Origin: Candidatus Woesebacteria bacterium
GTDB lineage: Bacteria; Patescibacteriota; Microgenomatia; UBA1400; UBA1396
Reading direction: 5' to 3'
DNA: 64,000 nt
NCBI GenBank assembly: GCA_963749595.1
Contig: CAVVNJ010000002.1
Span: 96,606-160,605 of the forward strand
The position numbers and the translations under genes are program-made. Below, one piece after another: positions 3,699 to 57,354 of the stretch (the first letter of the stretch is position 1; every line of letters begins with the position of its first letter). Below the pieces are notes generated by a model. It worked only from the letters and a program-made list of their open reading frames with translations. It did no database searches and was not told the origin of the DNA.

Positions 3699-4953
3699 AT
3701 GCGATTTAAAGGCCATCGGTTTGGGTTCAAGCTTTTTACCTATCTTCTGATAGCTGTTTTAGCTGGTGTAATCGGCTACCGGTCCGGCAAGGGATTAACC
3801 TGGCAACAAATTCTGCGGCTACCGACCAAGGCGGACATCAGCCAACTTAGTCGGCTACGCAATGCGGAACCAACGATTAGTCAGGGGACGGTCGATTTCT
3901 CCTTGTTCTGGGAAGTCTGGGCCAGACTCGAACGCGACTATGTGGATCCGTCCAAACTGGACGCCCAACAGATGGTTTATGGGGCCATTGCCGGAATGAC
4001 CAGTGCTTTGGGAGATCCTTACACTGTTTTCCTCAAGCCGGAAACCAAACAGCGCTTAACCGAAGACCTACAGGGTGAGTTTGACGGCGTCGGCATTCAA
4101 CTGGGCTATCGCGAGGGTCAATTGGCGGTCATTGCTCCGCTTAAAGGCCACCCAGCTGAGAAAGCTGGGGTTAGAGCCGGTGATTTTATTCTCCGAATCA
4201 TCGACGAACAGAAGAAAATTGATCGGGAAACCATCGGCATGAGTGCCGAAGAGGCAGTTTCCCTAATCCGCGGCAAGCGGGGAACTACGGTTAAATTGAC
4301 CCTGCTCACCCCGGAACCAGGAACCGCGCGACGTCACGCTCACCCGGGATAAAATCGAGATTCCTTCGGTGGAACTAAAAATAGTGGAGCAGGACGGCAA
4401 GCGCTATGGCTCATATCGTTCTCAGCCGCTTCGGGGACAACACCTTGCCCGAATGGGATAAGGTTGTCACCCAGCTTCTTCTGGAGGTCAAACTGGACGG
4501 CGTGGTGTTGGATATGCGTAATAACCCCGGCGGTTACCTGCAGGCAGCGATCGATATTTCCAGCGACTTCTTTGATGGCGGGAGTCGTCGTTTCCCAGGC
4601 CGGACGAGTCGCATCCGCAATCCTATACCACTACCCGTCGGCCTAGATTACAGAAGATCCCAGTGATCGTCTTGGTTAATAAGGGGAGCGCCTCGGCTTC
4701 GGAGATCGTGGCCGGCGCCGTCCGCGATCGGCGGCAGGCCAAGTTGGCTGGTGAAAAGACCTTTGGCAAGGGAACGGTCCAGGACGCCCAGCAGCTCGTG
4801 GACGGCGCCGGCCTGAACGTCACCATCGCCCGCTGGCTGCTTCCCTCTGGCGACTCCATCGACCACGAAGGTTTGGCCGTTTCCGTCGAGGCCATCGATA
4901 ATCCGGAGACCGTGGAAGACGAAGCAGTTGCCGCTGCCGCCAAAGCCCTTTAG
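3699..4953 (+). pseudogene. S41-family C-terminal processing peptidase (Ctp/Prc-like), reading frame broken at least 4 times
   Basis: Homology runs through three track ORFs (3699..4352, 4406..4666, 4663..4953) plus short stretches in other frames. The motifs are PDZ (GVGIQL...VIAPLKGHPAEKAGV), LDMRNNPGGYL and VLVNKGSASASEIVAGA. Shifts lie near 4325, 4403, 4585 and 4605. Confidence 0.85.
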
Positions 4954-4954
4954 A

Positions 4955-6113
4955 ATGAGAGTAATGGTTGATCGACGTTTCCGTGTCTCGAGCTTCGCGT
5001 TGGGCTTATTAGTTTCCGGACTGCTTCTGCTTTCCGCCGTTGGCGGCGCCCTGGCTGACCGGGTCTTCGTCGTTCAAACCCCTGGATCGCTGGTGGCCGC
5101 GCGGCGGACAACCGGTCGTCGGTCAGATCTTCACTGTCCCGCAATCCGCCGAACCAGCCATCGCCGTCGCGGAAAAAAGCCGCGACGCCGTCGTCACCGT
5201 GGCCGCCAAACGACCGGTGCCCAAACGGAACGTGTTGCCATTCGGCCTGCCAGATCGAGTCCGCCGAAACCGAATTGGTCCAGCAGGACATCGGTACGGG
5301 CTTTTCGGTTTCGCTGTCGGACGGTTTGATCGTTACCAACCGCCATGTCGTTGCTGATCCGTCCCTCGACGTACAAGATCATCGACGTCGACGGTCAGGA
5401 ATACGAAGTGCAGAAAATCTACCGCGATCCAACTAATGACCTGGCTATTCTTCAAACCACGGCCCATCTGCCAGCGCTCGCCGCTCGCTGACAGCAGTCA
5501 ACTCAAAGTCGGGCAATCCGTGGTCGCCATTGGTACGTCACTGGGCGAATTCCGTCAGAGTGTGACCACCGGCGTTATTTCCGGCCTGGGGCGGGGTATT
5601 GACGCCAGTGATGGATTCTCCGCCGAACATATTGATGATTTAATCCAGACCGACGCGGCGATTAATCCTGGTAATTCCGGCGGTCCGTTACTTAGCCTTA
5701 ATGGCGAAGCCGTTGGTGTTAACGTTGCCATGGCGGACGCGGAAAATATTGGTTTCGCGATTGCCATCAACATCGTTAAGTCCTCGATCGACAACTTCAA
5801 CAACACCGGCAAGTTTGACCGGCCGCTACTCGGAGTGCAATACAAATTAATCCCCCGTGAGACGGCTCTGCTTAATGACGTGCCTGAAGGGGCGTACATC
5901 GTGGCTGTTTTGCCCGGTACGACCGCGGAAAAGATGGGTCTTAAAGTCGGTGATATTCTGATTAAAGTTGATGGACAAGCCACCAAAGACACTACAGGCG
6001 GATTAGCCGGACTAATCAACCGCAAGAAAATCGGTGACACGGTTTCGGTGGAGTTGTGGCGCAATGGTGCTCTCCAGACTTTGTCCGGGGAACTTTTAAT
6101 TGCGCCGTCTTAG
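4955..6113 (+). pseudogene. HtrA/DegP-like trypsin-fold serine protease with C-terminal PDZ, frame broken at least 4 times
   Basis: Pieces lie in all three frames: IVTNRHVV, DLAILQ and DAAINPGNSGGPLL (catalytic Ser), then the PDZ (LPGTTAEKMGLKVGDILIKVDG). Shifts lie near 5070, 5260, 5368 and 5475. Confidence 0.85.
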
Positions 6114-21380: not shown

Positions 21381-22110
21381 CTAGGCTTTTTCCGAAGCGA
21401 GCGCCTTTTCCCGGGCAAAAACCGTCGCCTCATAGAGCGATTCAAAAGTACCGGTGTCCAACCAACGACCATTGACTTGGGCCACATCCAAAGTACCTTC
21501 CTGTAGATACACCATGTTTAAATCGGTGATTTCCAACTCACCTCGGGGCGAAGGCTGAAGATCTTTCGCTTTTTGGATCACTGAGTTGTCGTAAATATAC
21601 AATCCGGTCACGGCGTAGTTAGATTGCGGGTTCTCCGGTTTTTCGATAATTGAGATCGCTTTATTACTTTTGTCAAACTCCACCACCCCAAAGCGCTCCG
21701 GGTCCGGAACTTGCTTGGCAAAGATTCGGGCTCCAGACCGAAATGTCTGGATGGGTTGGGTAAAATCGTCCTCAAAAAGGTTATCGCCGAGAATCATGGT
21801 CACGTTGTCGTCGCCGATAAAGTTCTCACCAACCAATGAACGCTTGGGCTAGACCTTCCGGCTTGTCCTGAATTTCATAAGTAAATTTGCAGTCAAAGTC
21901 TTTGCCACTGCCCAGCAACTTCAAAAAGTCACCGGCGTGATCAGGAGCCACGATAAACAAAATGTCGCGAATTCCCGCCTGGCGGAGAGTGTTGAGCGGA
22001 TAATAAACCATCGGCTGGTTGTAGATCGGCAACAACTGCTTGCTGGTCACTTTGGTCAGGGGACGAAGACGAGTACCGGAACCCCCGGCCAGGATAATAC
22101 CTTTCATCAT
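21381..22110 (-). CDS. rfbA: glucose-1-phosphate thymidylyltransferase, one frameshift near 21835
   Basis: The N-terminal ORF carries [18 protein letters not shown]...GLAQAFI. It continues as [11 protein letters not shown]...LEITD in ORF 21381..21836. Confidence 0.85.
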
Positions 22111-23715: not shown

Positions 23716-24333
23716 TTACTCCGCAATCGATCCGTCCAAGATAAAGCGGACACTGGAGGTTACCTTACCCATTACTTCTTCACCAATCGGGCTCCCAGCC
23801 ACCAACAGTCCGGCGCCATCCGGATCAACCGGGTAATTGTTCGGTACCTGGTAGGTCAACTCAAAGTGCCGCTTCTGATTGATGTTGATCGTTGAGGCCG
23901 GAATCGAAATCGCGCTATCAACTAGCTCACCCAGAGTGTTAAAACCAGTGTTACTGCCATATTGGGAATCAATATCTTTTAGATCCACCTCAACCAACGA
24001 TTTGACGGCTTCCCAATCCTGATCCCCGGGCGCCACGCGTAGTTTCACCCGCAGCGTTTGATCAGGGGAGGCGTTCCACAGCCAAAACCGCTTTTTCACC
24101 GCGGTCATCCCTGGATACATCGTCGACAAGCCCTCAAAACCGATCGCGTTCTGGAAGCTCGCATCGTCCGGCGCCGTCGCTTGCTCCAGGGCTACCTTTA
24201 AATTGGGGCTGGCCACACTGAAGGTCATACCTTGCATCTGCGCTTCCGGATAGAAAAGCGCAAAGGCGGTGGTGGCTACCATTCCATACAGAGCCAGCAT
24301 CGCCCCGGCGCCAACTAACCAACGTTTGGTCAT
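23716..24333 (-). CDS. TasA/camelysin-like secreted protein (SipW-type signal peptide class)
   Basis: N-terminus MTKRWLVGAGAMLALYGMVATTAFALF followed by a beta-rich body of about 180 aa. The family call rests on signal-peptide style and size only. Confidence 0.5.
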   Translation of the reverse strand: MTKRWLVGAGAMLALYGMVATTAFALFYPEAQMQGMTFSVASPNLKVALEQATAPDDASFQNAIGFEGLSTMYPGMTAVKKRFWLWNASPDQTLRVKLRVAPGDQDWEAVKSLVEVDLKDIDSQYGSNTGFNTLGELVDSAISIPASTININQKRHFELTYQVPNNYPVDPDGAGLLVAGSPIGEEVMGKVTSSVRFILDGSIAE

Positions 24334-43387: not shown

Positions 43388-43717
43388 ATGAACACCATCC
43401 TGCAGTCCCGCAACATTGAGGTCGACGAGACGCTCGAGAAATTCATGAATCAACAGCTAGCTGAGCTGGACCGGCATCATTTTCGGTTGGACAAACTGAC
43501 GGTCGTTTTGGAGCGGGTTGAGAAGAAGAAAAATGATTCGTTTGCTAACCAGGTCACGCTGATCGCCGACTGGCCAGGGGAGAACGTCGTGGTGGAACGG
43601 CACGCCGAGGACCTGAAAGTGGCGTTCGTGGACGCCGTGGAACGGCTGGACCAGGCCTTGCTCAAAGCCAAGGAAAAACGCCGCGATGAAGAGCGTCGGT
43701 CGGAAAATCCCGCCTGA
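43388..43717 (+). CDS. hpf: ribosome hibernation factor (HPF/RaiA, short form)
   Basis: MNTILQSRNIEVDETLEKFMNQQL...DLKVAFVDAVERLDQAL. AAGGAGG lies upstream. Confidence 0.82.
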   Translation: MNTILQSRNIEVDETLEKFMNQQLAELDRHHFRLDKLTVVLERVEKKKNDSFANQVTLIADWPGENVVVERHAEDLKVAFVDAVERLDQALLKAKEKRRDEERRSENPA

Positions 43718-43771
43718 AGGTCAAACCTTCCAGAGGTGAGATTCCCAAAGGTCAGACCTTCCTGATAAAAT
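43716..43771 (+). promoter_or_regulatory. operator pair 1 (two 15-bp palindromes, 31-bp offset) overlapping a leaderless promoter
   Basis: GAAGGTCAAACCTTC is at 43716-43730 and AAAGGTCAGACCTTC at 43747-43761. TGaTAAAAT follows at 43763-43771, with ATG at 43778. Confidence 0.6.
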
Positions 43772-43777
43772 GCCGGA

Positions 43778-44401
43778 ATGGCAACTCGAATTTTAATTAT
43801 CCGCCACGGTGAAACCATCTGGAACGTTGAGCGGCGAATTCAAGGATCGCAAGACATCGCACTGACTGAACGCGGTCGGCAGCAAGCGCAATTGCTGGCT
43901 AAACGACTAAGCGCCGAATCCATCAAGGCGATCTATTCTTCACCGTTAGTGCGCGCTTGGGAGACGGCGGAAACTGTCGCTGCGCATCATACAGGGATCA
44001 ATCCGATCGCCCAACCAGAATTAGCCGAGTTTAGCTTCGGACCTCATGAGGGCAGAAAACTCGACCAAGTACTGGCCGAAGTTGATGAGGAAAAGTTGAA
44101 TTTTGACGACGACTACCGAATATCGATCGGAGCCGAACCAAAACAACCGTCAACTGCTTGGGCGCAGACGTTTTTTCCTAACATGGCCGATCGTCATTCC
44201 GAACAAACCATCTTACTTTCCACCCATGGCGCCAAAAAAAGACACCTGTTGGACGCGATTTTTCCAGATAAGACTGCCGAATTCTACGGTAGCCACCCAG
44301 AAAACTGCTCCCTAACCATTGTCCACTGGCATCCCCAAAACGGTCCCTCCCTGGAACTGCTCTATGATGCCTCACACCTGGAAGGTCAAACCTTCGGTTG
44401 A
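43778..44401 (+). CDS. histidine phosphatase family protein (phosphoglycerate-mutase-like)
   Basis: ILIIRHGETIWN catalytic motif in 207 aa. Confidence 0.85.
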   Translation: MATRILIIRHGETIWNVERRIQGSQDIALTERGRQQAQLLAKRLSAESIKAIYSSPLVRAWETAETVAAHHTGINPIAQPELAEFSFGPHEGRKLDQVLAEVDEEKLNFDDDYRISIGAEPKQPSTAWAQTFFPNMADRHSEQTILLSTHGAKKRHLLDAIFPDKTAEFYGSHPENCSLTIVHWHPQNGPSLELLYDASHLEGQTFG

Positions 44402-44443
44402 ATTTGCTCAAGAAGGTCAAACCTCAATCAGAACCTGTACAAT
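44381..44443 (+). promoter_or_regulatory. operator pair 2 (31-bp offset) plus -10 box of the downstream gene
   Basis: GAAGGTCAAACCTTC is at 44381-44395 and GAAGGTCAAACCTCA at 44412-44426. TACAAT follows at 44438-44443, then 7 nt to ATG 44451. Confidence 0.6.
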
Positions 44444-44450
44444 GGAACCC

Positions 44451-45564
44451 ATGGACGAACTTAATCCGCCCCGCCGCCTAAATTTTAAGCGCGTTGTCGT
44501 TTCGATCTTCGTTGGCGTTTTGATGTTTATCGTCGGCTTCGGTCTGCGCGCGCTAATGGAAACCTCGTCCCAAAGTTACCAGTTATTATCGCCACGCTCC
44601 GAGAAAGTCGAGCCGCCACCCAACCCTTATTCGGCGTACAGTTTAGCGGCATTACGAATTCGGCCCTGACACCTGGTCCGATCACCATTCTCGGCCCGCT
44701 GGGCGAACCGCAACCGACCTACCAGTCCTTCTTGGTCTCCTGGAACGTTCCCAACTTGGAAACTAAAAACTTGGATCGGGTGACCGGCCAATTAAATCTT
44801 CCCACCGGATCCGGTCCCTATCCGGTGATCGTCATGTTGCGCGGCTACGTGGATCGCGATGAATATCAGACTGGAGTCGGCACCAGAGAACGCCGCCGCC
44901 GAATTAGCCAAGTCCGGTTTCGTGACCATTGCTCCCGGATTTTTTGGGCTATGGCGGCAGTGATGCCGAGTCCAGCGACATTTTAATCTCCCGGTTTGCC
45001 AGACCAATCACAGTTTTGCAATTGTTGAAAAACCTTGGCCGACTCAATTGGAAATTAAACCCGCAACTAGCAGCGCCATTCAACCGCTCAACGCTCAACT
45101 GGTTAATCGCACCATTGACCCCACCCGAATCGGAATCTGGGCGCATAGCAATGGCGGCCAGATTGCCTTATCGGTTTTGGAAATCTACTAGCCGGGTTCT
45201 GCCCACGTCTCTCTGGGCTCCCGTCTCGCAACCCTTTCCTTACTCCGTGCTTTATTACAGCAATGAGCTGGCTGATGGCGGAAAATATTTACGCCAGCAA
45301 CTAGCCAATTTTGAGTTCAGCCTGAACAACGATCCAGTCGACTTTTCTGTCCTTAGTGAACCGGGACGGATCCTCGCACCGATTCAAGTTCATCAGGGCG
45401 GACAAGACGAGGCCGTACCGCTTTCCTGGTCGGAAACTTTAGTCGAGAAATTGCGTGACGCAACTGTGGCTGCCCAGCTGTATACTTACCCCTCGGCTGA
45501 TCACAATCTTCAGCCCGATTGGCAGACCGTGGTCCAGCGCGACCGACAGTTTTTCGCCAAATAG
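44451..45564 (+). pseudogene. membrane-anchored alpha/beta hydrolase (dienelactone hydrolase/S9-like), frame broken at least 4 times
   Basis: TM anchor, then YPVIVMLRGY, GFVTIAPDFLGYGGSD, the nucleophile elbow IWAHSNGGQIA and a C-terminal PSADHNL, spread over three frames. Shifts lie near 44660, 44885, 45130 and 45185. Confidence 0.7.
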
Positions 45565-49745: not shown

Positions 49746-51133
49746 GTGGCCAAGATTCGTTTCCGCTTATCACTCCGCTTGTCAAGACGAAACTGCAGTT
49801 CTTTTTGACGACGGTGCTGCTGGCTGTCGCACTCCTGGTTGCTTTGCCAAACCGGTTCACGATTCCCTGGCCCAAGCCAATCGAAATTACCAAGCTCTCG
49901 TTAGATTTTACCCGACATCGGCCTGCCGATTTCGACCAATCAACCGTTGAAAAAGGACTCGATATCGTTGGCGGCACCCAAGTCACTTTGGCAGCCGACA
50001 TGAAGGATATCCCGGTGAGGAACGCGACAACGCTCTGGCCAGCGTGGAGGAGGTCTTGCGCCGACGAGTGGATCTTTACGGCGTGGCTGAACCGCGTATC
50101 CGCAGCTCGGTTTGGGGTGATCAGTACCGGATTCTGGTCGAGTTGCCCGGACTGGACCAGCCGCAGCAGGCCCTACAGCTGATTGGACAGACGGCGCAGC
50201 TGTCGTTTCGCGAAATTGAGCCCTCCGTTGCCATTGCCACCGACGCGGCCAACCTAACGCTGGACACGTTTATTCCCACCGGCCTGGGCGGAACGCAGCT
50301 GCGCCGCGCTACCGTGCAGTTTAGTCCGACGGGCGAGCCGGTCGTTTCGATCGAATTCAACAGCGAGGGCGCGACGCTCTTCGGCCAGATTACCGAGCGA
50401 AACGTCAGCAAACCGCTGGCGATCTTCCTGGATGAACAGCCGGCATCGCTGCCGGTGGTCAACGAAGCCATCCTGGGCGGCACGGCCCAGATTTCCGGCA
50501 ATTTCACCCTGGAGCAAGCTAAAACCCTGGTCAGCCAACTCAACGCCGGCGCGCTGCCGGTCCCGATCCAAATCGTGGAACAAAAAACCATCGGGCCGTC
50601 CCTCGGCCAACAGTCGCTCAATCTCTCGGTGCACGCCGGCTTCATCGGCATCGCGCTGGTGATCCTGTTTATGATTTTGCTCTACGGCTGGGCCGGCTTG
50701 ATCGCTGATTTCGGCCTGATCGCCTATGGCATCCTCACCGTGGCGCTGTACAAACAAATTCCCGTCACGCTCAGTCTTCCCGGTATCGCCGGACTCTTGC
50801 TCTCGATCGGTATGGCGGTGGACGCCAACATTCTCACCTTCGAGCGCATCAAGGAGGAATGGCGGGCGGGCAAATCCTGGCCGGAAGCCTTGCGGCTGGG
50901 CTTTGGCCGTTCCTGGGACAGCATTAAGAGCGCCAACTTGGCCACCTTGGCGATCTGTTTTATTCTGTTCAATCCGCTCGACTGGGGTTTTCTCAACACC
51001 AGCGGCCCGGTGCGCGGCTTTCGCCCTGACTCTGGCCCTGGGCATCGCGGTTAGCCTCTTCACCGGCGTATTTTACTCCCGGCTGCTGGTGCAACTGTTC
51101 CTAGCGCCGACCCAAACGCAGGAGGTTAAATGA
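49746..51133 (+). pseudogene. secD: protein translocase subunit SecD, frame broken at least 3 times
   Basis: GLDIVGGTQVTL, RVDLYGVAEPRI, LGGTAQISGNFT and GPSLGQQS, then the TM bundle ending GFALTLALGIAVSLFTGV in the frame of ORF 50726..51133. Shifts lie near 49765, 50005 and 51020. The stop overlaps the secF ATG (ATGA). Confidence 0.85.
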
Positions 51134-52021
51134 CCGTTCACTGGATGGCGCGCCGGCGCTGGTACTATTTATTTTCCGGGACCCTAATTCTGTTGGGTTT
51201 ACTGGCCATTCTCCTGGGCGGACTAAAGCCGGCGCTGGAGTTCACCGGCGGTTCGCAACTGATCGTGCGCGATACCAGTAATCGGATGCGAGGTTGCTTG
51301 GCGACGCAGCCAAAAAGCCTCGAAACGAGCAAAGATCGAACGACCGACGATTATTCCCTTGGCCGACAACGAATACGAATTCGATTTGGCAACTTGACCA
51401 ATCACCCAGAAAGACGGCTTTACTAACCAGCTGGCGGACCAGCTTGCCTGATTCGGAAATCTAAGGAACTGAGTTTTCAGAGCGTCGGTCCGACGATCGG
51501 CGGGAGTTGCTGACCAAAACCGGCTACGCCGTCGGTCTGGCGGTGATTGTGATTTTGGCCTATCTCTGGCTACAGTTTAACGATTGGCGCTTTGGTCTGG
51601 CCGGCGTTTTGGCCATGCTGCATGACACTTTTATCGTCACCGGCACCTTCGCGGTCCTGGGTTATTTTCTCGGAGTGAAGGTCGACGTGCTGTTCGTGAC
51701 GGCCTCTGTTAACAATTCTGTCCTTTCTCGGTCCATGACACGATCGTTTTGTTCGACCGCTACCGCGAGCTGCGCCGCACCACGCGCGCCACGGTTTCGG
51801 CCGAAGAATTGGCGGATTTGGCGGTGACGCAAACGGTGACACGGTCGTTAAATAATTCATTGACGATTCTGATCATGTTGGCGGCCTTGTTGCTGTTGGG
51901 AGGGGAGTCGTTGCGGTGGTTTGCGATGGCGTTATTTGTGGGGACACTGATTGGGACGTACTCAAGTACCTTCACAGCGTTGCCGTTATATGTGGATTTG
52001 GTGAAATGGGATAAAAAGTAG
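51130..52021 (+). pseudogene. secF: protein translocase subunit SecF, frame broken at least 3 times
   Basis: LKPALEFTGGSQL (N-terminus), LAMLHDTFIVTGTFAVLG, and RYRELRR...TRSLNNSLTILIMLAALLLLGG spread across three frames. Confidence 0.82.
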
Positions 52022-53741: not shown

Positions 53742-55466
53742 ATGAATATTTTTCAAACCCTACTCAGAGTTTCCAAAAAAGCAGCCGCAATCACTTCATT
53801 GTCTTTATTAGTGTTGGCCCTTTTAACCGTTGGTGGGATTCTACATTTCCGTTCCAGAGCTGCGGCAACAACGCAGCCAACTCTCGTTGTTGGAATGAAA
53901 AAAGTTGGTGACAGTTCCTATACCAATACCCTTAATCTAAATGTTGGTGATCGGGCTCGATTTAAAGTCGCGGTGATCAACGGAACTGAGGGGAATGTGA
54001 TCAACAATCTTCACTTCTTTTCCGTGTTCGGTCACGACGGAGTTTACACCTGGATTAAAGCCGACAATCTAGACAAAGTTGGTGTACCACGTGTCTTATG
54101 GACCGTTCCTGATAGCGCCAAGGTTCGATACATTCCCAATTCGACTTACTACGAAACCAACGTCAGTGGTTCTTGGGTCGGCTCAATCCAGCCTGATTAT
54201 CAGGGTGACAGCATGCTCTTTATTGATGACTCGCATGACGGCATCGGCTTCCATAAACACAATCTCACCGGTGGAACCAACTATCAATATGTCGCTTACT
54301 TTGATGTCGAGGTTGTCGAAGGTAATAATCCAGTCTTCAATAACCATTCAGAGGATCAACCCACTTTCCAGGTCCGCAAACAAGGAGACAGCGATTGGAA
54401 AACCTCACTCAGCGGCTTCGCGCCCAATGACATTCTCGAGTTCAAGCTCTACGCTCACAACAACACTCGCGGTACCTTGGCCCATGACGTTCGTGTCGGC
54501 TTAACCAACTGGACTGCCACGGAAACCGAGCACCTCACTTTGACCGGTTTCGTCAAAGCCAACAATGCCACCACCAAGCAAAATAACGTCACCATTAATG
54601 ACGACCAACCCTTCACCTTGGACTACATCGAGGGCTCTACTCGTTTCCAAGGTCGGCCGACTCTAGGTGCCGATCCCTTTGACACTAATGCCGTCCAAGC
54701 CGATGGAGTAATTGCACCCAACGGAATCCAAATCGGTTCGATTGGCGACATGGAAGGCTGCTGGGACTTCTTAATGACCGTACGTTTCCAGGCTAAAGTC
54801 GAGGCTATTCCTACGCCGACACCAACTCCAACCCCCACTCCTACGCCGACTCCTACTCCCACACCAACTCCGACGCCAACCCCTACGCCGACACCCACGC
54901 CTACGCCTACCCCTACCCCTACCCCTACCCCCACACCCACTCCAACCCCCACTCCTACGCCGACTCCTACTCCCACACCAACTCCGACGCCAACCCCTAC
55001 GCCGACACCAACCCCTGAGTACACCGGCTTTGTCATCGAAAAATACGAAGACACTGACGGCGACGGCTCTCGCGACAACAACGAAAACGGCTTGAGCTGG
55101 GAATTCGAATGGGACTTGAATCACGACGAAAACTGGCGCAACTACGTGACCTACTCGGAAAGTAATGGGCGTGGTGGAACCGTCGGTAACCTACACCAAG
55201 ACGACGTGGTCCGCGTTCGTGAAAAAGGTAAGGACGGCTGGAAAGCCACCACCAGCACCGAAGTGACCCTCACCATGCAAAAGAACGAGATCAAGATGGC
55301 GGTGTTTGGCAACCGTTTGACCAAACCCACTACTACTCCGAGCAGCCAACCGCCGGAAGAACTGCCGGAAACCGGCACTGACAGTGTGCCAGGCTTGATG
55401 ACCGCCTTCGGCTTGGGCTGGCTGGGACTGGGTCTTAAGCTACTCAGCCGCCGCCTGCGCCTCTGA
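53742..55466 (+). CDS. LPXTG-anchored cell-surface protein with (TP)n stalk
   Basis: Signal anchor, beta-rich domains, about 68 TP dipeptides, then LPETG plus a hydrophobic stretch and RRLRL at the C-terminus. Confidence 0.85.
54810..55016. repeat. (ACN-CCN)n Thr-Pro coding microsatellite with a ~70-bp exact internal duplication
   Basis: The segment starting actccaacccccactcctacgccgactcc... occurs at about 54825 and again at about 54939. Confidence 0.9.
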
Positions 55467-55511
55467 AAGGTCTGACTTTGAAAAGTACTACGCCTGGAAG
55501 GTTAAACCTTT
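55466..55511 (+). promoter_or_regulatory. operator pair 3 (31-bp offset) at the LPXTG-sortase junction
   Basis: AAAGGTCTGACTTTG is at 55466-55480 and GAAGGTTAAACCTTT at 55497-55511. Confidence 0.5.
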
Positions 55512-56455
55512 ATCTGAGGGATTTCCCCAGTCTGGAAACCGGCTGGTTTTACAGCGAACTCAAAATTAACCCCGCGGTTCGTTCCTGGAAGCGGCAAAAA
55601 CGCACCGAGCCGGTCGTCTGGCTAGATTTAACGGCTTTACGCCAACAGAGGCTTGAATCCGCCCAAGCGCTGGTTATCACCACCACCGCTAATCAGTTAG
55701 CCGCCCACCCACTGGCACATCTAGCCTTGCCAGTAATTGCTTGGCCGCAAATTACCCTCGCGCTTTCCCTACCGGAAGTGCCGCTTCCGAACAAAAAAGT
55801 GGTTGCCCAAACCTTGGATTGGACCAGCCGGTTTTCGTTGGCTTTCGCCGTGGCCTTGGCTCTGCTTTTTGCCGGTCCGATCGCGATTTTAGAGACCCAA
55901 TCCTTAGTTGGCCGCGCCATCAGGAATATAAACCCGGTTGAACAATCAGTGACCGAGGCACCGGAACCAACCATTGCTCCCGACCCCACGCCCAATATTA
56001 CCAGTCCAAAAGATATTTTTTCCATTTCTTTCCCTGATTTGGGCATTGAAAGCACCATTACACCGAACGTCAACTCCGCTGACGCCAAAGCTTACCGCAC
56101 GGCACTAAAAGAGGGGATTGCCCATGCCGCCGGCACCGGTCTGCCGGGGCAATTAGACGTTAATCACACCATCTACCTCTTTGCTCACTCCACCGATGGA
56201 ACCTGGAATATTGACCGCTACAACGCCCAATTTTATGCCCTTAAAGACGCTGAGCCGGGCCAGATCATTACCGTTCGGTTTTGGGGTGAGGATTTTCGCT
56301 ACCGCATCACGGATAAACAGATCGTCGCCGCCGATGATACGATCTGGCTGCAACCCCAGTTCGAGTCTGAAAAATTGGTCCTGCAGACCTGTTATCCTCC
56401 AGGAACCACTTGGAAAAGATTGCTCGTGATCGCCGAACCGGTGCCTATTGAATAA
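55478..56455 (+). CDS. sortase (transpeptidase); start uncertain (TTG 55478 or GTG 55799)
   Basis: IYLFAHS (His), LVLQTCYPPG (catalytic Cys) and RLLVIAEP (Arg). The frame is open for 107 codons upstream of the TM anchor. From GTG 55799 the protein would be a typical ~218 aa. Confidence 0.8.
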   Translation: MKSTTPGRLNLYLRDFPSLETGWFYSELKINPAVRSWKRQKRTEPVVWLDLTALRQQRLESAQALVITTTANQLAAHPLAHLALPVIAWPQITLALSLPEVPLPNKKVVAQTLDWTSRFSLAFAVALALLFAGPIAILETQSLVGRAIRNINPVEQSVTEAPEPTIAPDPTPNITSPKDIFSISFPDLGIESTITPNVNSADAKAYRTALKEGIAHAAGTGLPGQLDVNHTIYLFAHSTDGTWNIDRYNAQFYALKDAEPGQIITVRFWGEDFRYRITDKQIVAADDTIWLQPQFESEKLVLQTCYPPGTTWKRLLVIAEPVPIE

Positions 56456-56485: not shown

Positions 56486-56824
56486 ATGCCTAGAACCATT
56501 GAACAACCACCCATTCCTGATGAAATCGAAAACATTTTTGCCCGTTACTACAATTATTTTGGTGATATTGCCCTAACCGAAGGCTATATTCGGGCCGTTG
56601 AAGCCGGTCACATTGCCCTGCGCGAGTCGGTCGATTTGGATATCGCCGATAAATCCAGGGATCAAAAAACCAAGCGATTAAAGCAAAAAATGACCAAAGA
56701 GCGCGGTCTAGAATTTACTCCGGAGATAGATACCTTGTTTGAAGCTTATCTGGAACAAGTCATTACTCAGCTGCTGCCAGGTGTTGGTCGAATTCTGAGC
56801 ATTGGTGAGCCAAAAACGCGTTAG
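56486..56824 (+). CDS. hypothetical protein
   Basis: 112-aa ORF with an AGGAGG SD. Confidence 0.5.
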   Translation: MPRTIEQPPIPDEIENIFARYYNYFGDIALTEGYIRAVEAGHIALRESVDLDIADKSRDQKTKRLKQKMTKERGLEFTPEIDTLFEAYLEQVITQLLPGVGRILSIGEPKTR

Positions 56825-56848
56825 TGCCTCGTCACCTCACAATAACTG

Positions 56849-56962
56849 TGTTATAATTTCCCAGTGCTAGTCGGGCGCAAGCCCTTCTTCAGCTAAGACA
56901 TGTCTAAGCCGAGAAACTAGCACACTCAAGAGCGTCCATCCGGACGCTTTTTAGTTTTAGTT
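56849..56962 (+). ncRNA. candidate small RNA (~95 nt) with its own promoter and terminator
   Basis: TGtTATAAT at 56849-56857. GTGCTAGT (56864-56871) pairs with ACTAGCAC (56925-56932), closing a junction that contains a GGGC-GCAA-GCCC hairpin. The terminator is AGCGTCC-atcc-GGACGCT plus T5 (56941-56962). No family recognised. Confidence 0.35.
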
Positions 56963-57354
56963 CTTGAACGCTTTTTGTGTGGCATAACACTCAAAAAATG
57001 CAATTTCCCATTGCCAATTTTTTCAAGTATTACCCTTATCTCGACCCCTGATTCAGTCTCACAGACTAATTGATAGCGAACCGTTTCTTTCCATTTGCCT
57101 TTTATCTTTCTTCGAACGACCCGGGTATCGGAGACTTGCCGGCAGTGAGCAATAACATATGGCACGTGCGTAAAACATTTAAGCTTTAAATATTGTTCGC
57201 TAATTTTCCGCGGGGCTCGATTCGACTCATAGATCAAATGCATGAATCCTTCGGAAGTAAAGCTTACTTCTTCCGATAGAATCGGGCAATATAGTGGGGC
57301 AAGTTTTTTGAATTCAGATTTTACCTGGTGTTTAATTTTTTGAATAGCCGACAT
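56926..57354 (-). CDS. hypothetical basic protein
   Basis: 142-aa ORF with a Lys/Arg-rich C-terminus. Its last codons overlap the hairpin at 56941-56958. Confidence 0.5.
   Translation of the reverse strand: MSAIQKIKHQVKSEFKKLAPLYCPILSEEVSFTSEGFMHLIYESNRAPRKISEQYLKLKCFTHVPYVIAHCRQVSDTRVVRRKIKGKWKETVRYQLVCETESGVEIRVILEKIGNGKLHFLSVMPHKKRSRTKTKKRPDGRS

Follow-up and report, generated by a model that had tools for sequence, protein, structure and literature searches.

The question raised by this locus is why two short palindromes, their starts exactly 31 bp apart, should lie on the junction between a gene for an LPXTG surface protein and the sortase gene that follows it in a Candidatus Woesebacteria bacterium, a member of the Patescibacteriota or Candidate Phyla Radiation (CPR). 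The stretch analysed, referred to here as the window, comprises 64,000 nucleotides of contig CAVVNJ010000002.1 (positions 96,606 to 160,605; assembly GCA_963749595.1). Two similar palindrome pairs occur elsewhere in it, upstream of a phosphatase gene (pair 1) and an alpha/beta hydrolase gene (pair 2), and a first-pass annotation had linked the sortase, through the third pair, to the same putative regulon as these two genes. We consider it most likely, at a probability of about 0.7, that the 46 bp unit at 55466–55511 (pair 3) is a doublet, of the 31 bp class, from a new CPR family of repetitive extragenic palindromes (REPs) and that it has been absorbed at the LPXTG–sortase junction.

Pair 3 consists of AAAGGTCTGACTTTG at 55466–55480 (site 1) and GAAGGTTAAACCTTT at 55497–55511 (site 2), both on the forward strand and 31 bp apart from start to start; these strings, coordinates and spacing, as reported in the first-pass annotation, were reproduced exactly when the sequence was re-read. 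Site 1 does begin on the final base (55466) of the LPXTG stop codon TGA (55464–55466), and the TTG annotated as the sortase start (55478–55480) lies inside it, together with a Shine–Dalgarno (SD)-like AAAGG. It is the weakest member among the window sites (17.2 bits), with one core mismatch (ACTTT for ACCTT). Site 2 has an exact 13-mer core and encodes the sortase residues GRLNLY. The 16 nt spacer between them (aaaagtactacgcctg, 55481–55496, forward strand) forms sortase codons 2–6 and is unlike the spacers of pairs 1 and 2 in sequence while identical to them in length, as had been noted. A 5′ CTGA tag of site 1 (55462–55466, forward strand) contains the LPXTG stop codon, and the flank has the resemblance to that of pair 1 that was described earlier (cgcctgGAAGG and cgcctGAAGG). 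The reported lack of a −10 box downstream of pair 3 was borne out, and no terminator-like signal was called at the pair.

The 5-3-5 palindrome AAGGTnnnACCTT, which pair 3 has in common with pairs 1 and 2 and with a single site at 24220, was found at five exact sites in the window compared with 0.05 expected. When up to one mismatch was allowed, AAGGTNNNACCTT gave seven matches compared with 1.7 expected, a number reached in none of 100 shuffled sequences; sites with one mismatch numbered 2 in the 64 kb, with 1.9 expected. Six of the seven sites form three pairs at exactly 31 bp (43717/43748, 44382/44413 and 55467/55498), with one single site (24221), and we estimate the chance of a partner with at most one mismatch lying exactly 31 bp to either side of an exact site at ~6e-5. 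A position weight matrix trained on the same seven sites that it separates scored each of them at 17 bits or more and every other window position at 11.8 bits or less. The window consensus, GAAGGTnnnACCTTC, is a 15 bp palindrome (GAAGGT-NNN-ACCTTC) with a stem of 5–6 bp and a 3 nt loop. An asymmetric 5′ CTG tag is present on the top strand at five of the seven sites (P ~7e-7), and the motif is therefore not purely symmetric. The central triplets of the pairs (CAA/CAG, CAA/CAA and CTG/TAA) are complementary in none of the three. All three doublets are located at junctions of same-direction genes and begin either at the upstream stop codon or no more than 18 nt from it. The single site (GAAGGTCATACCTTG, 24220–24234, exact, no strand assigned) lies inside a minus-strand open reading frame (ORF; 23716–24333) for a hypothetical membrane protein, where it encodes QGMTF, the frame-1 peptide type of intragenic copies in other CPR genomes; no partner for it was found at distances of 18–45 bp. 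Core sites with two or three mismatches were rarer in the window than a first-order Markov model predicts (14 versus 24 and 145 versus 197, respectively).

A genome scan for the 31 bp pair, with one genome per species, detected 41 loci, ~27 of them in CPR genomes belonging to Saccharibacteria, Woesebacteria, Beckwithbacteria, Doudnabacteria, Nomurabacteria, Zambryskibacteria, Adlerbacteria and Paceibacteria. A variable-gap scan of metagenomes detected at least 120 loci, many of which came from groundwater. Among the metagenome matches listed, spacings of 21–29 bp predominated, with peaks at 23–24 and 27–28 bp, and 31 bp was rare; as this unbiased scan is dominated by other distances, a universal 31 bp helical phasing was rejected. 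In ~80 % of doublets the two 13-mers are reverse complements of each other over their whole length, including the centre. Flanks are usually not complementary, with a complementarity of 0 in ~70 % of doublets, while spacers hold recurrent motifs within each spacing class. Neither target-site duplications nor direct repeats in the flanks nor long-hairpin flanks were found as a general feature of the doublets. The comparison of window spacers with those of the family (9 shared 7-mers versus ~4 expected, P 0.03–0.08) was marginal and is not relied on.

Nearly half of the metagenomic doublets listed (65 of 141, ~46 %) lie deep inside long ORFs, in all three frames, giving peptides of the types KVxP, QGxTL and RSDL; the intergenic members comprise 34 between same-direction genes, 18 between convergent genes and eight between divergent genes. 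Orthologous host genes carry the element at the same position in different frames (GatB in L088 and L139; also L130 and L152, where L numbers denote loci compared here). Alignment with solved homologues showed the elements to be insertions, of 12, 9 and ~12 residues in LigA and ~10 residues in GatB (range 9–13 residues). The genes beside 31 bp doublets in Woesebacteria-type genomes are functionally unrelated.

Some copies depart from the isolated doublet. LigA of L142 has three insertions, so that one gene holds multiple translated doublets, and L021 and L028 have many copies inside ORFs of 2,280 and 1,871 residues, with at least eight copies within ~1 kb of one giant ORF. Between convergent genes, L103 (223–345) carries seven head-to-tail copies of AAAAGGTTRKACCTTTTRGGKHA with a 22 bp period, a tandem array unlike the doublets. 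Repeats with an AAGGT...ACCTT core (GTTACAAGGTAGAACCTTGTAAC; AAAGGTGTCACCTTT) were also present in non-CPR genomes, namely Nostocaceae (L019, L034) and Chitinophagales-type Bacteroidota (L009, L029, L031), and may be unrelated REP families converging on a similar core.

When all ORFs beside intergenic doublets were clustered, the family that recurred most often had the motifs YHxxNRG and LMPNH(F/Y)HLL, and it was present at 10 of ~150 doublet loci (tblastn). All five proteins tested exceeded the gathering threshold of Pfam Y1_Tnp (PF01797), and the sole NCBIfam match, below the equivalog cut-off, was to REP-associated tyrosine transposase (RAYT). A search of the PDB with a single CPR RAYT-like sequence gave no match and a five-sequence profile was needed, for which E. 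coli TnpA-REP (4er8) ranked first among solved structures, before the ISDra2 transposase, in an alignment that matches the HUH and YIxxNP motifs. At 8 of the 10 loci, the transposase gene has inverted AAGGT-N3-ACCTT sites on both sides, at distances of 2–76 bp. A gene bracketed by inverted REPs is the defining REP–RAYT arrangement (PMC3337134, PMC3116915, PMC5581495). The transposase-flanking sites include 31 bp doublets at L015 (on one flank) and L001; no GTAG or CGTC tag was seen beside the RAYT-flanking units. A doublet also lies inside a RAYT-like ORF itself (L141:1419–1454). Because CPR doublets accompany or bracket RAYT-type transposase genes, the palindromes are read as a REP family not described before, spread across Patescibacteria and with its own Y1/HUH RAYTs. 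Pair 3 belongs to this RAYT-associated motif family, has its doublet architecture, is positioned at a gene junction and is translated; a RAYT is presumably encoded in this genome too, and its activity may have placed pair 3 or may maintain it.

By analogy with known systems, a RAYT would recognise REP units as DNA hairpins and disperse or maintain them, and the units would accumulate at the 3′ ends of genes and be tolerated in coding sequence. At the LPXTG–sortase junction, the CTGA tag would supply the TGA stop of the LPXTG gene, as for the HPF gene at pair 1 and in L170, site 1 would provide the sortase with its SD-like AAAGG and TTG start, and the spacer with site 2 would encode the first 11 sortase residues, which are unconserved. 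Pair 3 would not be a promoter operator, and any effect on sortase expression would be secondary. The fold predicted for 55456–55521 pairs the AAAGG...UUG segment with site 2 (−17.3 kcal/mol); a hairpin of this kind, in which the ribosome-binding site and start codon pair with codons 7–11, might tie translation of the sortase to completion of the LPXTG gene. E. coli REPs within ~15 nt of a stop codon reportedly lower expression of the upstream gene via ribosome stalling.

The CPR family shares with the REP/REPIN–RAYT systems (P. fluorescens REPINs and E. coli REPs with TnpA-REP; PMC3116915, PMC3337134, PMC5581495, PMC3479197) the arrangement of short palindromes in spaced doublets with many copies per genome, a preference for intervals between same-direction or convergent genes, close to the stop codon of the upstream gene, a Y1/HUH gene flanked by inverted units, and a patchy, lineage-bound distribution with copies retained at orthologous sites. 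It differs in its very short units (13–15 bp), in a core that is conserved across classes and not species- or genus-specific, in an intragenic share of the listed doublets that exceeds that of published families, and, in the window, in doublets that are not inverted and whose spacers are unrelated. The stem and loop of the CPR unit fall within the range of published REPs (stem 5–13 bp, loop 2–20 bp; PMC3733652, Table 1). According to the same survey, dimers predominate and have spacers of similar length whose sequences may differ, REPs that separate same-direction genes are located near the 3′ end of the upstream gene, REP termini supply stop codons, and the places where intragenic REPs are found include genes for DNA ligase and tRNA synthetase and the N-termini of proteins (PMC3733652). 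The GTAG and CGTC super-families, with their dimers and the bacterial interspersed mosaic elements (BIMEs) of E. coli (PMC3733652), have the same stem and loop range, an unpaired end tag and dimers. The CPR tag, in contrast, is CTG(R), at five of the seven window sites, and head-to-head or tail-to-tail arrangement is not assignable in a unit that is a near-perfect palindrome and shows its orientation in the centre and the tag alone.

Rickettsia palindromic elements (RPEs), which are 100–150 bp long and confined to Rickettsia (PMC3733652), are similar in being placed in-frame in housekeeping genes of a reduced genome and translated as extra loop residues, and their decoration of protein N-termini corresponds to the situation of the sortase here; the CPR units differ as doublets of 36–46 bp with an associated RAYT. 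Miniature inverted-repeat transposable elements (MITEs) such as the Neisseria Correia elements are likewise small and non-autonomous, have inverted ends, lie at gene junctions and can change how neighbouring genes are expressed, whereas the CPR doublets are far smaller, show no detected target-site duplication and go with a Y1 HUH rather than a DDE transposase. The REP survey covers eight phyla and no CPR (PMC3733652), a later survey of HUH enzymes does not mention CPR, and a literature search on palindromic, REP or MITE elements in CPR found no relevant description.

Several observations weigh against a REP doublet. The doublets in the window are not inverted copies, unlike ~80 % of family members, and the GTAG and CGTC tags of the published REP super-families are both missing from the units. 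No tail of decayed copies was found in the window, where two- and three-mismatch sites are not over-represented. No RAYT homologue was found in the 64 kb window or in ~60 kb of relatives' contigs, which is weak counter-evidence because RAYTs are single-copy. Between conserved anchors, the pair 3 junction measures 74 nt compared with 75 and 66 nt in relatives; no length has been added and a simple insertion is therefore not evident there. The proximal sites of pairs 1 and 2 and of L166 and L169 lie 8–19 bp before the −10 boxes of leaderless genes. Finally, in orthologous pairs the spacers and centres have drifted but the half-sites and the exact 31 bp spacing have not, a pattern that looks more like selection for protein binding than like neutral selfish DNA.

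The junction itself was examined through its two genes and their orthologues. The upstream ORF (53742–55466, forward strand) encodes, from its translation, a surface protein with an LPETG sorting signal, a hydrophobic tail, RRLRL and a long (TP)n linker; it has no match in Pfam. The sortase ORF (55478–56455, forward strand) encodes 325 aa, with the sortase domain at residues 185–322 and an N-terminal extension of residues 1–107. The first-pass annotation had doubted whether this extension is translated and had offered GTG 55799 as an alternative start, proposing a comparison of sortase N-termini among relatives. Homologues at 43–81 % identity cover 90–99 % of the ORF, and in their alignment the extension is conserved as protein, down to ~43 % identity, with the blocks RDxPxLxTGWxY, LDxxxLRxQR, HPL and LPxIAWP from codon 14 onward. 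The doubt is thus not borne out, and a start at GTG 55799 is ruled out by this conservation. Because the blocks are conserved from codon 14 and no ATG, GTG or TTG occurs between 55478 and them, the sequence identifies TTG 55478 as the sortase start and the extension as translated. Residues 6–12, encoded by site 2, are not conserved in homologues, and the palindrome is therefore not there because of the protein; site 2 encodes the frame-2 RLNL peptide type found in other CPR genomes.

The gene order SecDF, 548-residue protein, LPXTG protein, sortase, GreA and trigger factor is kept in L043 and L045, in which the sortase is 63 % and 60 % identical, respectively, to that of the window. Their LPXTG–sortase junctions have no pair and use ordinary SD sequences, and no palindrome site was found in 31 kb of L042, L043 and L045 combined. 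The first-pass annotation had treated such an absence from orthologous junctions as evidence against a regulatory pair. The absence is real in both relatives, but it is not decisive because the site family as a whole is missing from a more distant lineage.

Pairs 1 and 2 differ from pair 3 in being followed by promoter-like sequence. Pair 1 (43716–43761, forward strand) comprises GAAGGTCAAACCTTC, a 16 nt spacer and AAAGGTCAGACCTTC, with the HPF stop codon TGA (43715–43717) overlapping site 1, and is followed on the same strand by TGATAAAAT (43763–43771) and the apparently leaderless ATG (43778) of the phosphatase. Pair 2 (44381–44426, forward strand) comprises GAAGGTCAAACCTTC, a 16 nt spacer that contains the phosphatase stop codon (44399–44401), and GAAGGTCAAACCTCA, followed on that strand by TACAAT (44438–44443) and the ATG (44451) of the hydrolase. 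The starts of the phosphatase and hydrolase genes lie 6–7 nt past a −10 box (TGATAAAAT, TACAAT and TGTAGAAT; 43763–43780 and 44436–44453 in the window, L166:31–47 and L169:2538–2554). No SD sequence precedes either gene, in contrast to the sortase with its AAAGG and TTG, and from sequence their mRNAs look leaderless.

The L170 locus (HPF 81 % identical) contains the orthologue of pair 1: as in the window, site 1 overlaps the TGA and is followed by CCAG, and a second site comes exactly 31 bp later; the spacer is half-diverged and the central triplets differ. The orthologue of pair 2 in L169 (HPF 89 % identical) is a 31 bp pair immediately before the hydrolase −10 box and ATG, and shares 13 of 18 spacer positions with pair 2. 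In L166 (phosphatase 50 % identical), a site is kept immediately before an extended −10 box and a leaderless GTG, but pair 2 is missing; measured from shared anchors, the window has a net excess of 46 nt over L166 at this junction, which equals the doublet length. No sites were found in 13.6 kb of L171 (HPF 72 % identical), and stretches of 13.6 kb and 19.5 kb from a more distant lineage contain no member of the site family. A further candidate orthologue of the phosphatase, P0124, was rejected as CobC in an unrelated cobalamin operon. Their position immediately before the −10 boxes of leaderless genes, together with their conservation in close relatives, makes a secondary regulatory role possible for pairs 1 and 2.

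The phosphatase gene (43778–44401) is bracketed by the two doublets (43716–44426), whose first 15-mers (GAAGGTCAAACCTTC) are identical, and the closest relative, L169 (2458–2580), has no phosphatase gene. The HPF–hydrolase junction of L169 is colinear with what recombination between both doublets would yield, or may represent the ancestral state before gain of a REP-flanked cassette.

The proposal that pair 3 ties the sortase to a phosphatase/hydrolase regulon can thus be divided. Pair 3 is the third member of the same phased-pair family and spans the stop/start junction, as claimed. The regulon is unsupported because the family is CPR-wide, occurs about as often in ORFs as between genes, has unrelated neighbours and brackets RAYT genes, and it is weakened further for pair 3, which is promoter-less and absent from two orthologous junctions. 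The regulon would correspond to a rival reading in which the doublets are, or became, operators of a small regulon, with a dimer on each palindrome and two dimers cooperating across the three helical turns of 31 bp, repressing the leaderless phosphatase and hydrolase promoters and forming a roadblock for transcription or translation on its way into the sortase gene. Operators built from tandem palindromes at a distance of three helical turns are well established, as in NrdR boxes, two 16 bp palindromes ~31–32 bp apart upstream of ribonucleotide reductase genes (consensus acaCwAtATaTwGtgt). Pairs 1 and 2 resemble these boxes in spacing and in overlapping promoter elements but differ in consensus (GAAGGTnnnACCTTC), in neighbours (HPF, phosphatase, hydrolase and sortase, not nrd) and in that CPR sites also occur inside ORFs and around transposase genes. 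The exact 31 bp of all three window pairs with unrelated spacers, the retention of half-sites and spacing in L170 and L169 despite divergent spacers and central triplets, the position of the proximal site 8–19 bp before the −10 box at pairs 1 and 2, L166 and L169, and the lack of decayed copies in the window all favour an operator. Set against these are a promoter-less pair 3 that overlaps coding sequence and is missing from two orthologous junctions, family spacing peaks (23–24 and 27–28 bp) that are not helical-turn multiples, the ~46 % of listed copies that are insertions inside ORFs, the functional incoherence of the neighbouring genes, the variable distance from site to −10 box (8, 12, 12 and 19 bp) and a RAYT association that explains the family without a transcription factor. 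Operators are therefore judged unlikely. LexA, the one CPR regulator studied by comparative genomics, was rejected as the binding protein, since its reported motif in Patescibacteria is a direct repeat (PMC7739468).

A primary function in RNA, whereby folding of the mRNA (two hairpins, or site 1 with site 2) stabilises the upstream 3′ end or hides the ribosome-binding site and start of the sortase and so couples its translation to that of its LPXTG substrate, is more doubtful still. All three pairs lie on the sense strand where one gene follows another in the same direction, beginning at the upstream stop codon or close to it, the fold of 55456–55521 has the pairing described above, one L169 site has a symmetric T–A to C–G double change that keeps pairing, and published REPs are regarded as working largely at the RNA level (PMC3733652). 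However, the folds barely beat shuffled sequence (z = −2.9, −1.3 and −1.5), hairpins need no exact 31 bp spacing, symmetric double changes are equally expected of a dimer-bound palindrome, and no terminator-like U tract was found after the pairs. A scan of intrinsic terminators scored only site 1 of pair 2, weakly and with no U tract following, and in an Rfam scan of the window just two tRNAs reached the gathering score, with no family at the pairs. G·U-compatible changes in imperfect family members numbered 5 in the sense and 16 in the antisense orientation, a strand asymmetry opposite to the prediction; with the weak fold z-scores, this led to rejection of sense-strand RNA pairing. DNA-uptake-type sequences, accumulated in place by biased uptake and recombination in competent CPR, would account for the origin of pair 3 without a change in length and for sites in both coding and non-coding DNA, and one report describes Saccharibacteria as naturally competent (PMC10187176). 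The low density (seven sites in 64 kb), the strict doublets and RAYT-flanking arrangement, which are unlike uptake sequences, and the insertion character of the intragenic copies make this very improbable. Chance, or a by-product of coding and translation signals (SD sequence, start and N-terminal codons), fits best with site 1, the weakest site, whose AAAGG and TTG are required in any case. It is effectively refuted by the window motif statistics: site 2 is an exact 13-mer (0.05 expected per window) with a partner at 31 bp, as in the two other pairs, its residues are unconserved, and orthologous junctions use an ordinary SD sequence without palindromes.

A REP doublet at pair 3 removes a tempting but unsupported link between sortase, phosphatase and hydrolase, and the start codon of the sortase has been fixed. 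Most known REP/REPIN–RAYT systems come from Proteobacteria and a small number of further phyla, and the CPR family would be a new family in a new phylum. Its core is shared across CPR classes in genomes famous for streamlining, and nearly half of the listed copies are translated inside essential genes (DNA ligase, GatB, SecA and tRNA synthetase), which bears on REP persistence and annotation. In metagenome-assembled CPR genomes, gene callers and the prediction of regulons from motifs will be misled by peptides that REPs encode, stop codons that they supply and gene cassettes that they bracket. A bolder extension, which we offer tentatively, is that CPR have an ancient, phylum-wide REP–RAYT partnership, its 13 bp core still recognisable from class to class, that has been co-opted in this lineage, so that 31 bp doublets bind a protein (possibly the RAYT or a derivative), gate the leaderless promoters and the LPXTG–sortase junction, and mediate cassette gain and loss. 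If true, REP–RAYT systems would colonise even the housekeeping proteins of ~1 Mb genomes.

Other features of the window were also recorded. The LPXTG protein contains ~47 Thr-Pro repeats encoded by a perfect, microsatellite-like ACNCCN run (54700–55000), which probably serves as a stalk or linker and whose length may vary. Gene content between the sortase and greA varies: the window (56486–57354) has two small ORFs there, of 112 and 142 residues, neither of which matched a Pfam family above the curated cut-off, while L042 (975–1772) has a DUF3800 gene and L043 (1525–1615) and L045 have nothing. The SecD/SecF, HtrA-like and RmlA-like genes look split (51130–52021, 4406–6113 and 21381–22110). 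The alpha/beta hydrolase is likewise split over three frames at 44451–45564, and a public contig with an identical phosphatase has an intact ORF of 403 residues; the split genes of the window reflect either assembly indel errors or pseudogenes.

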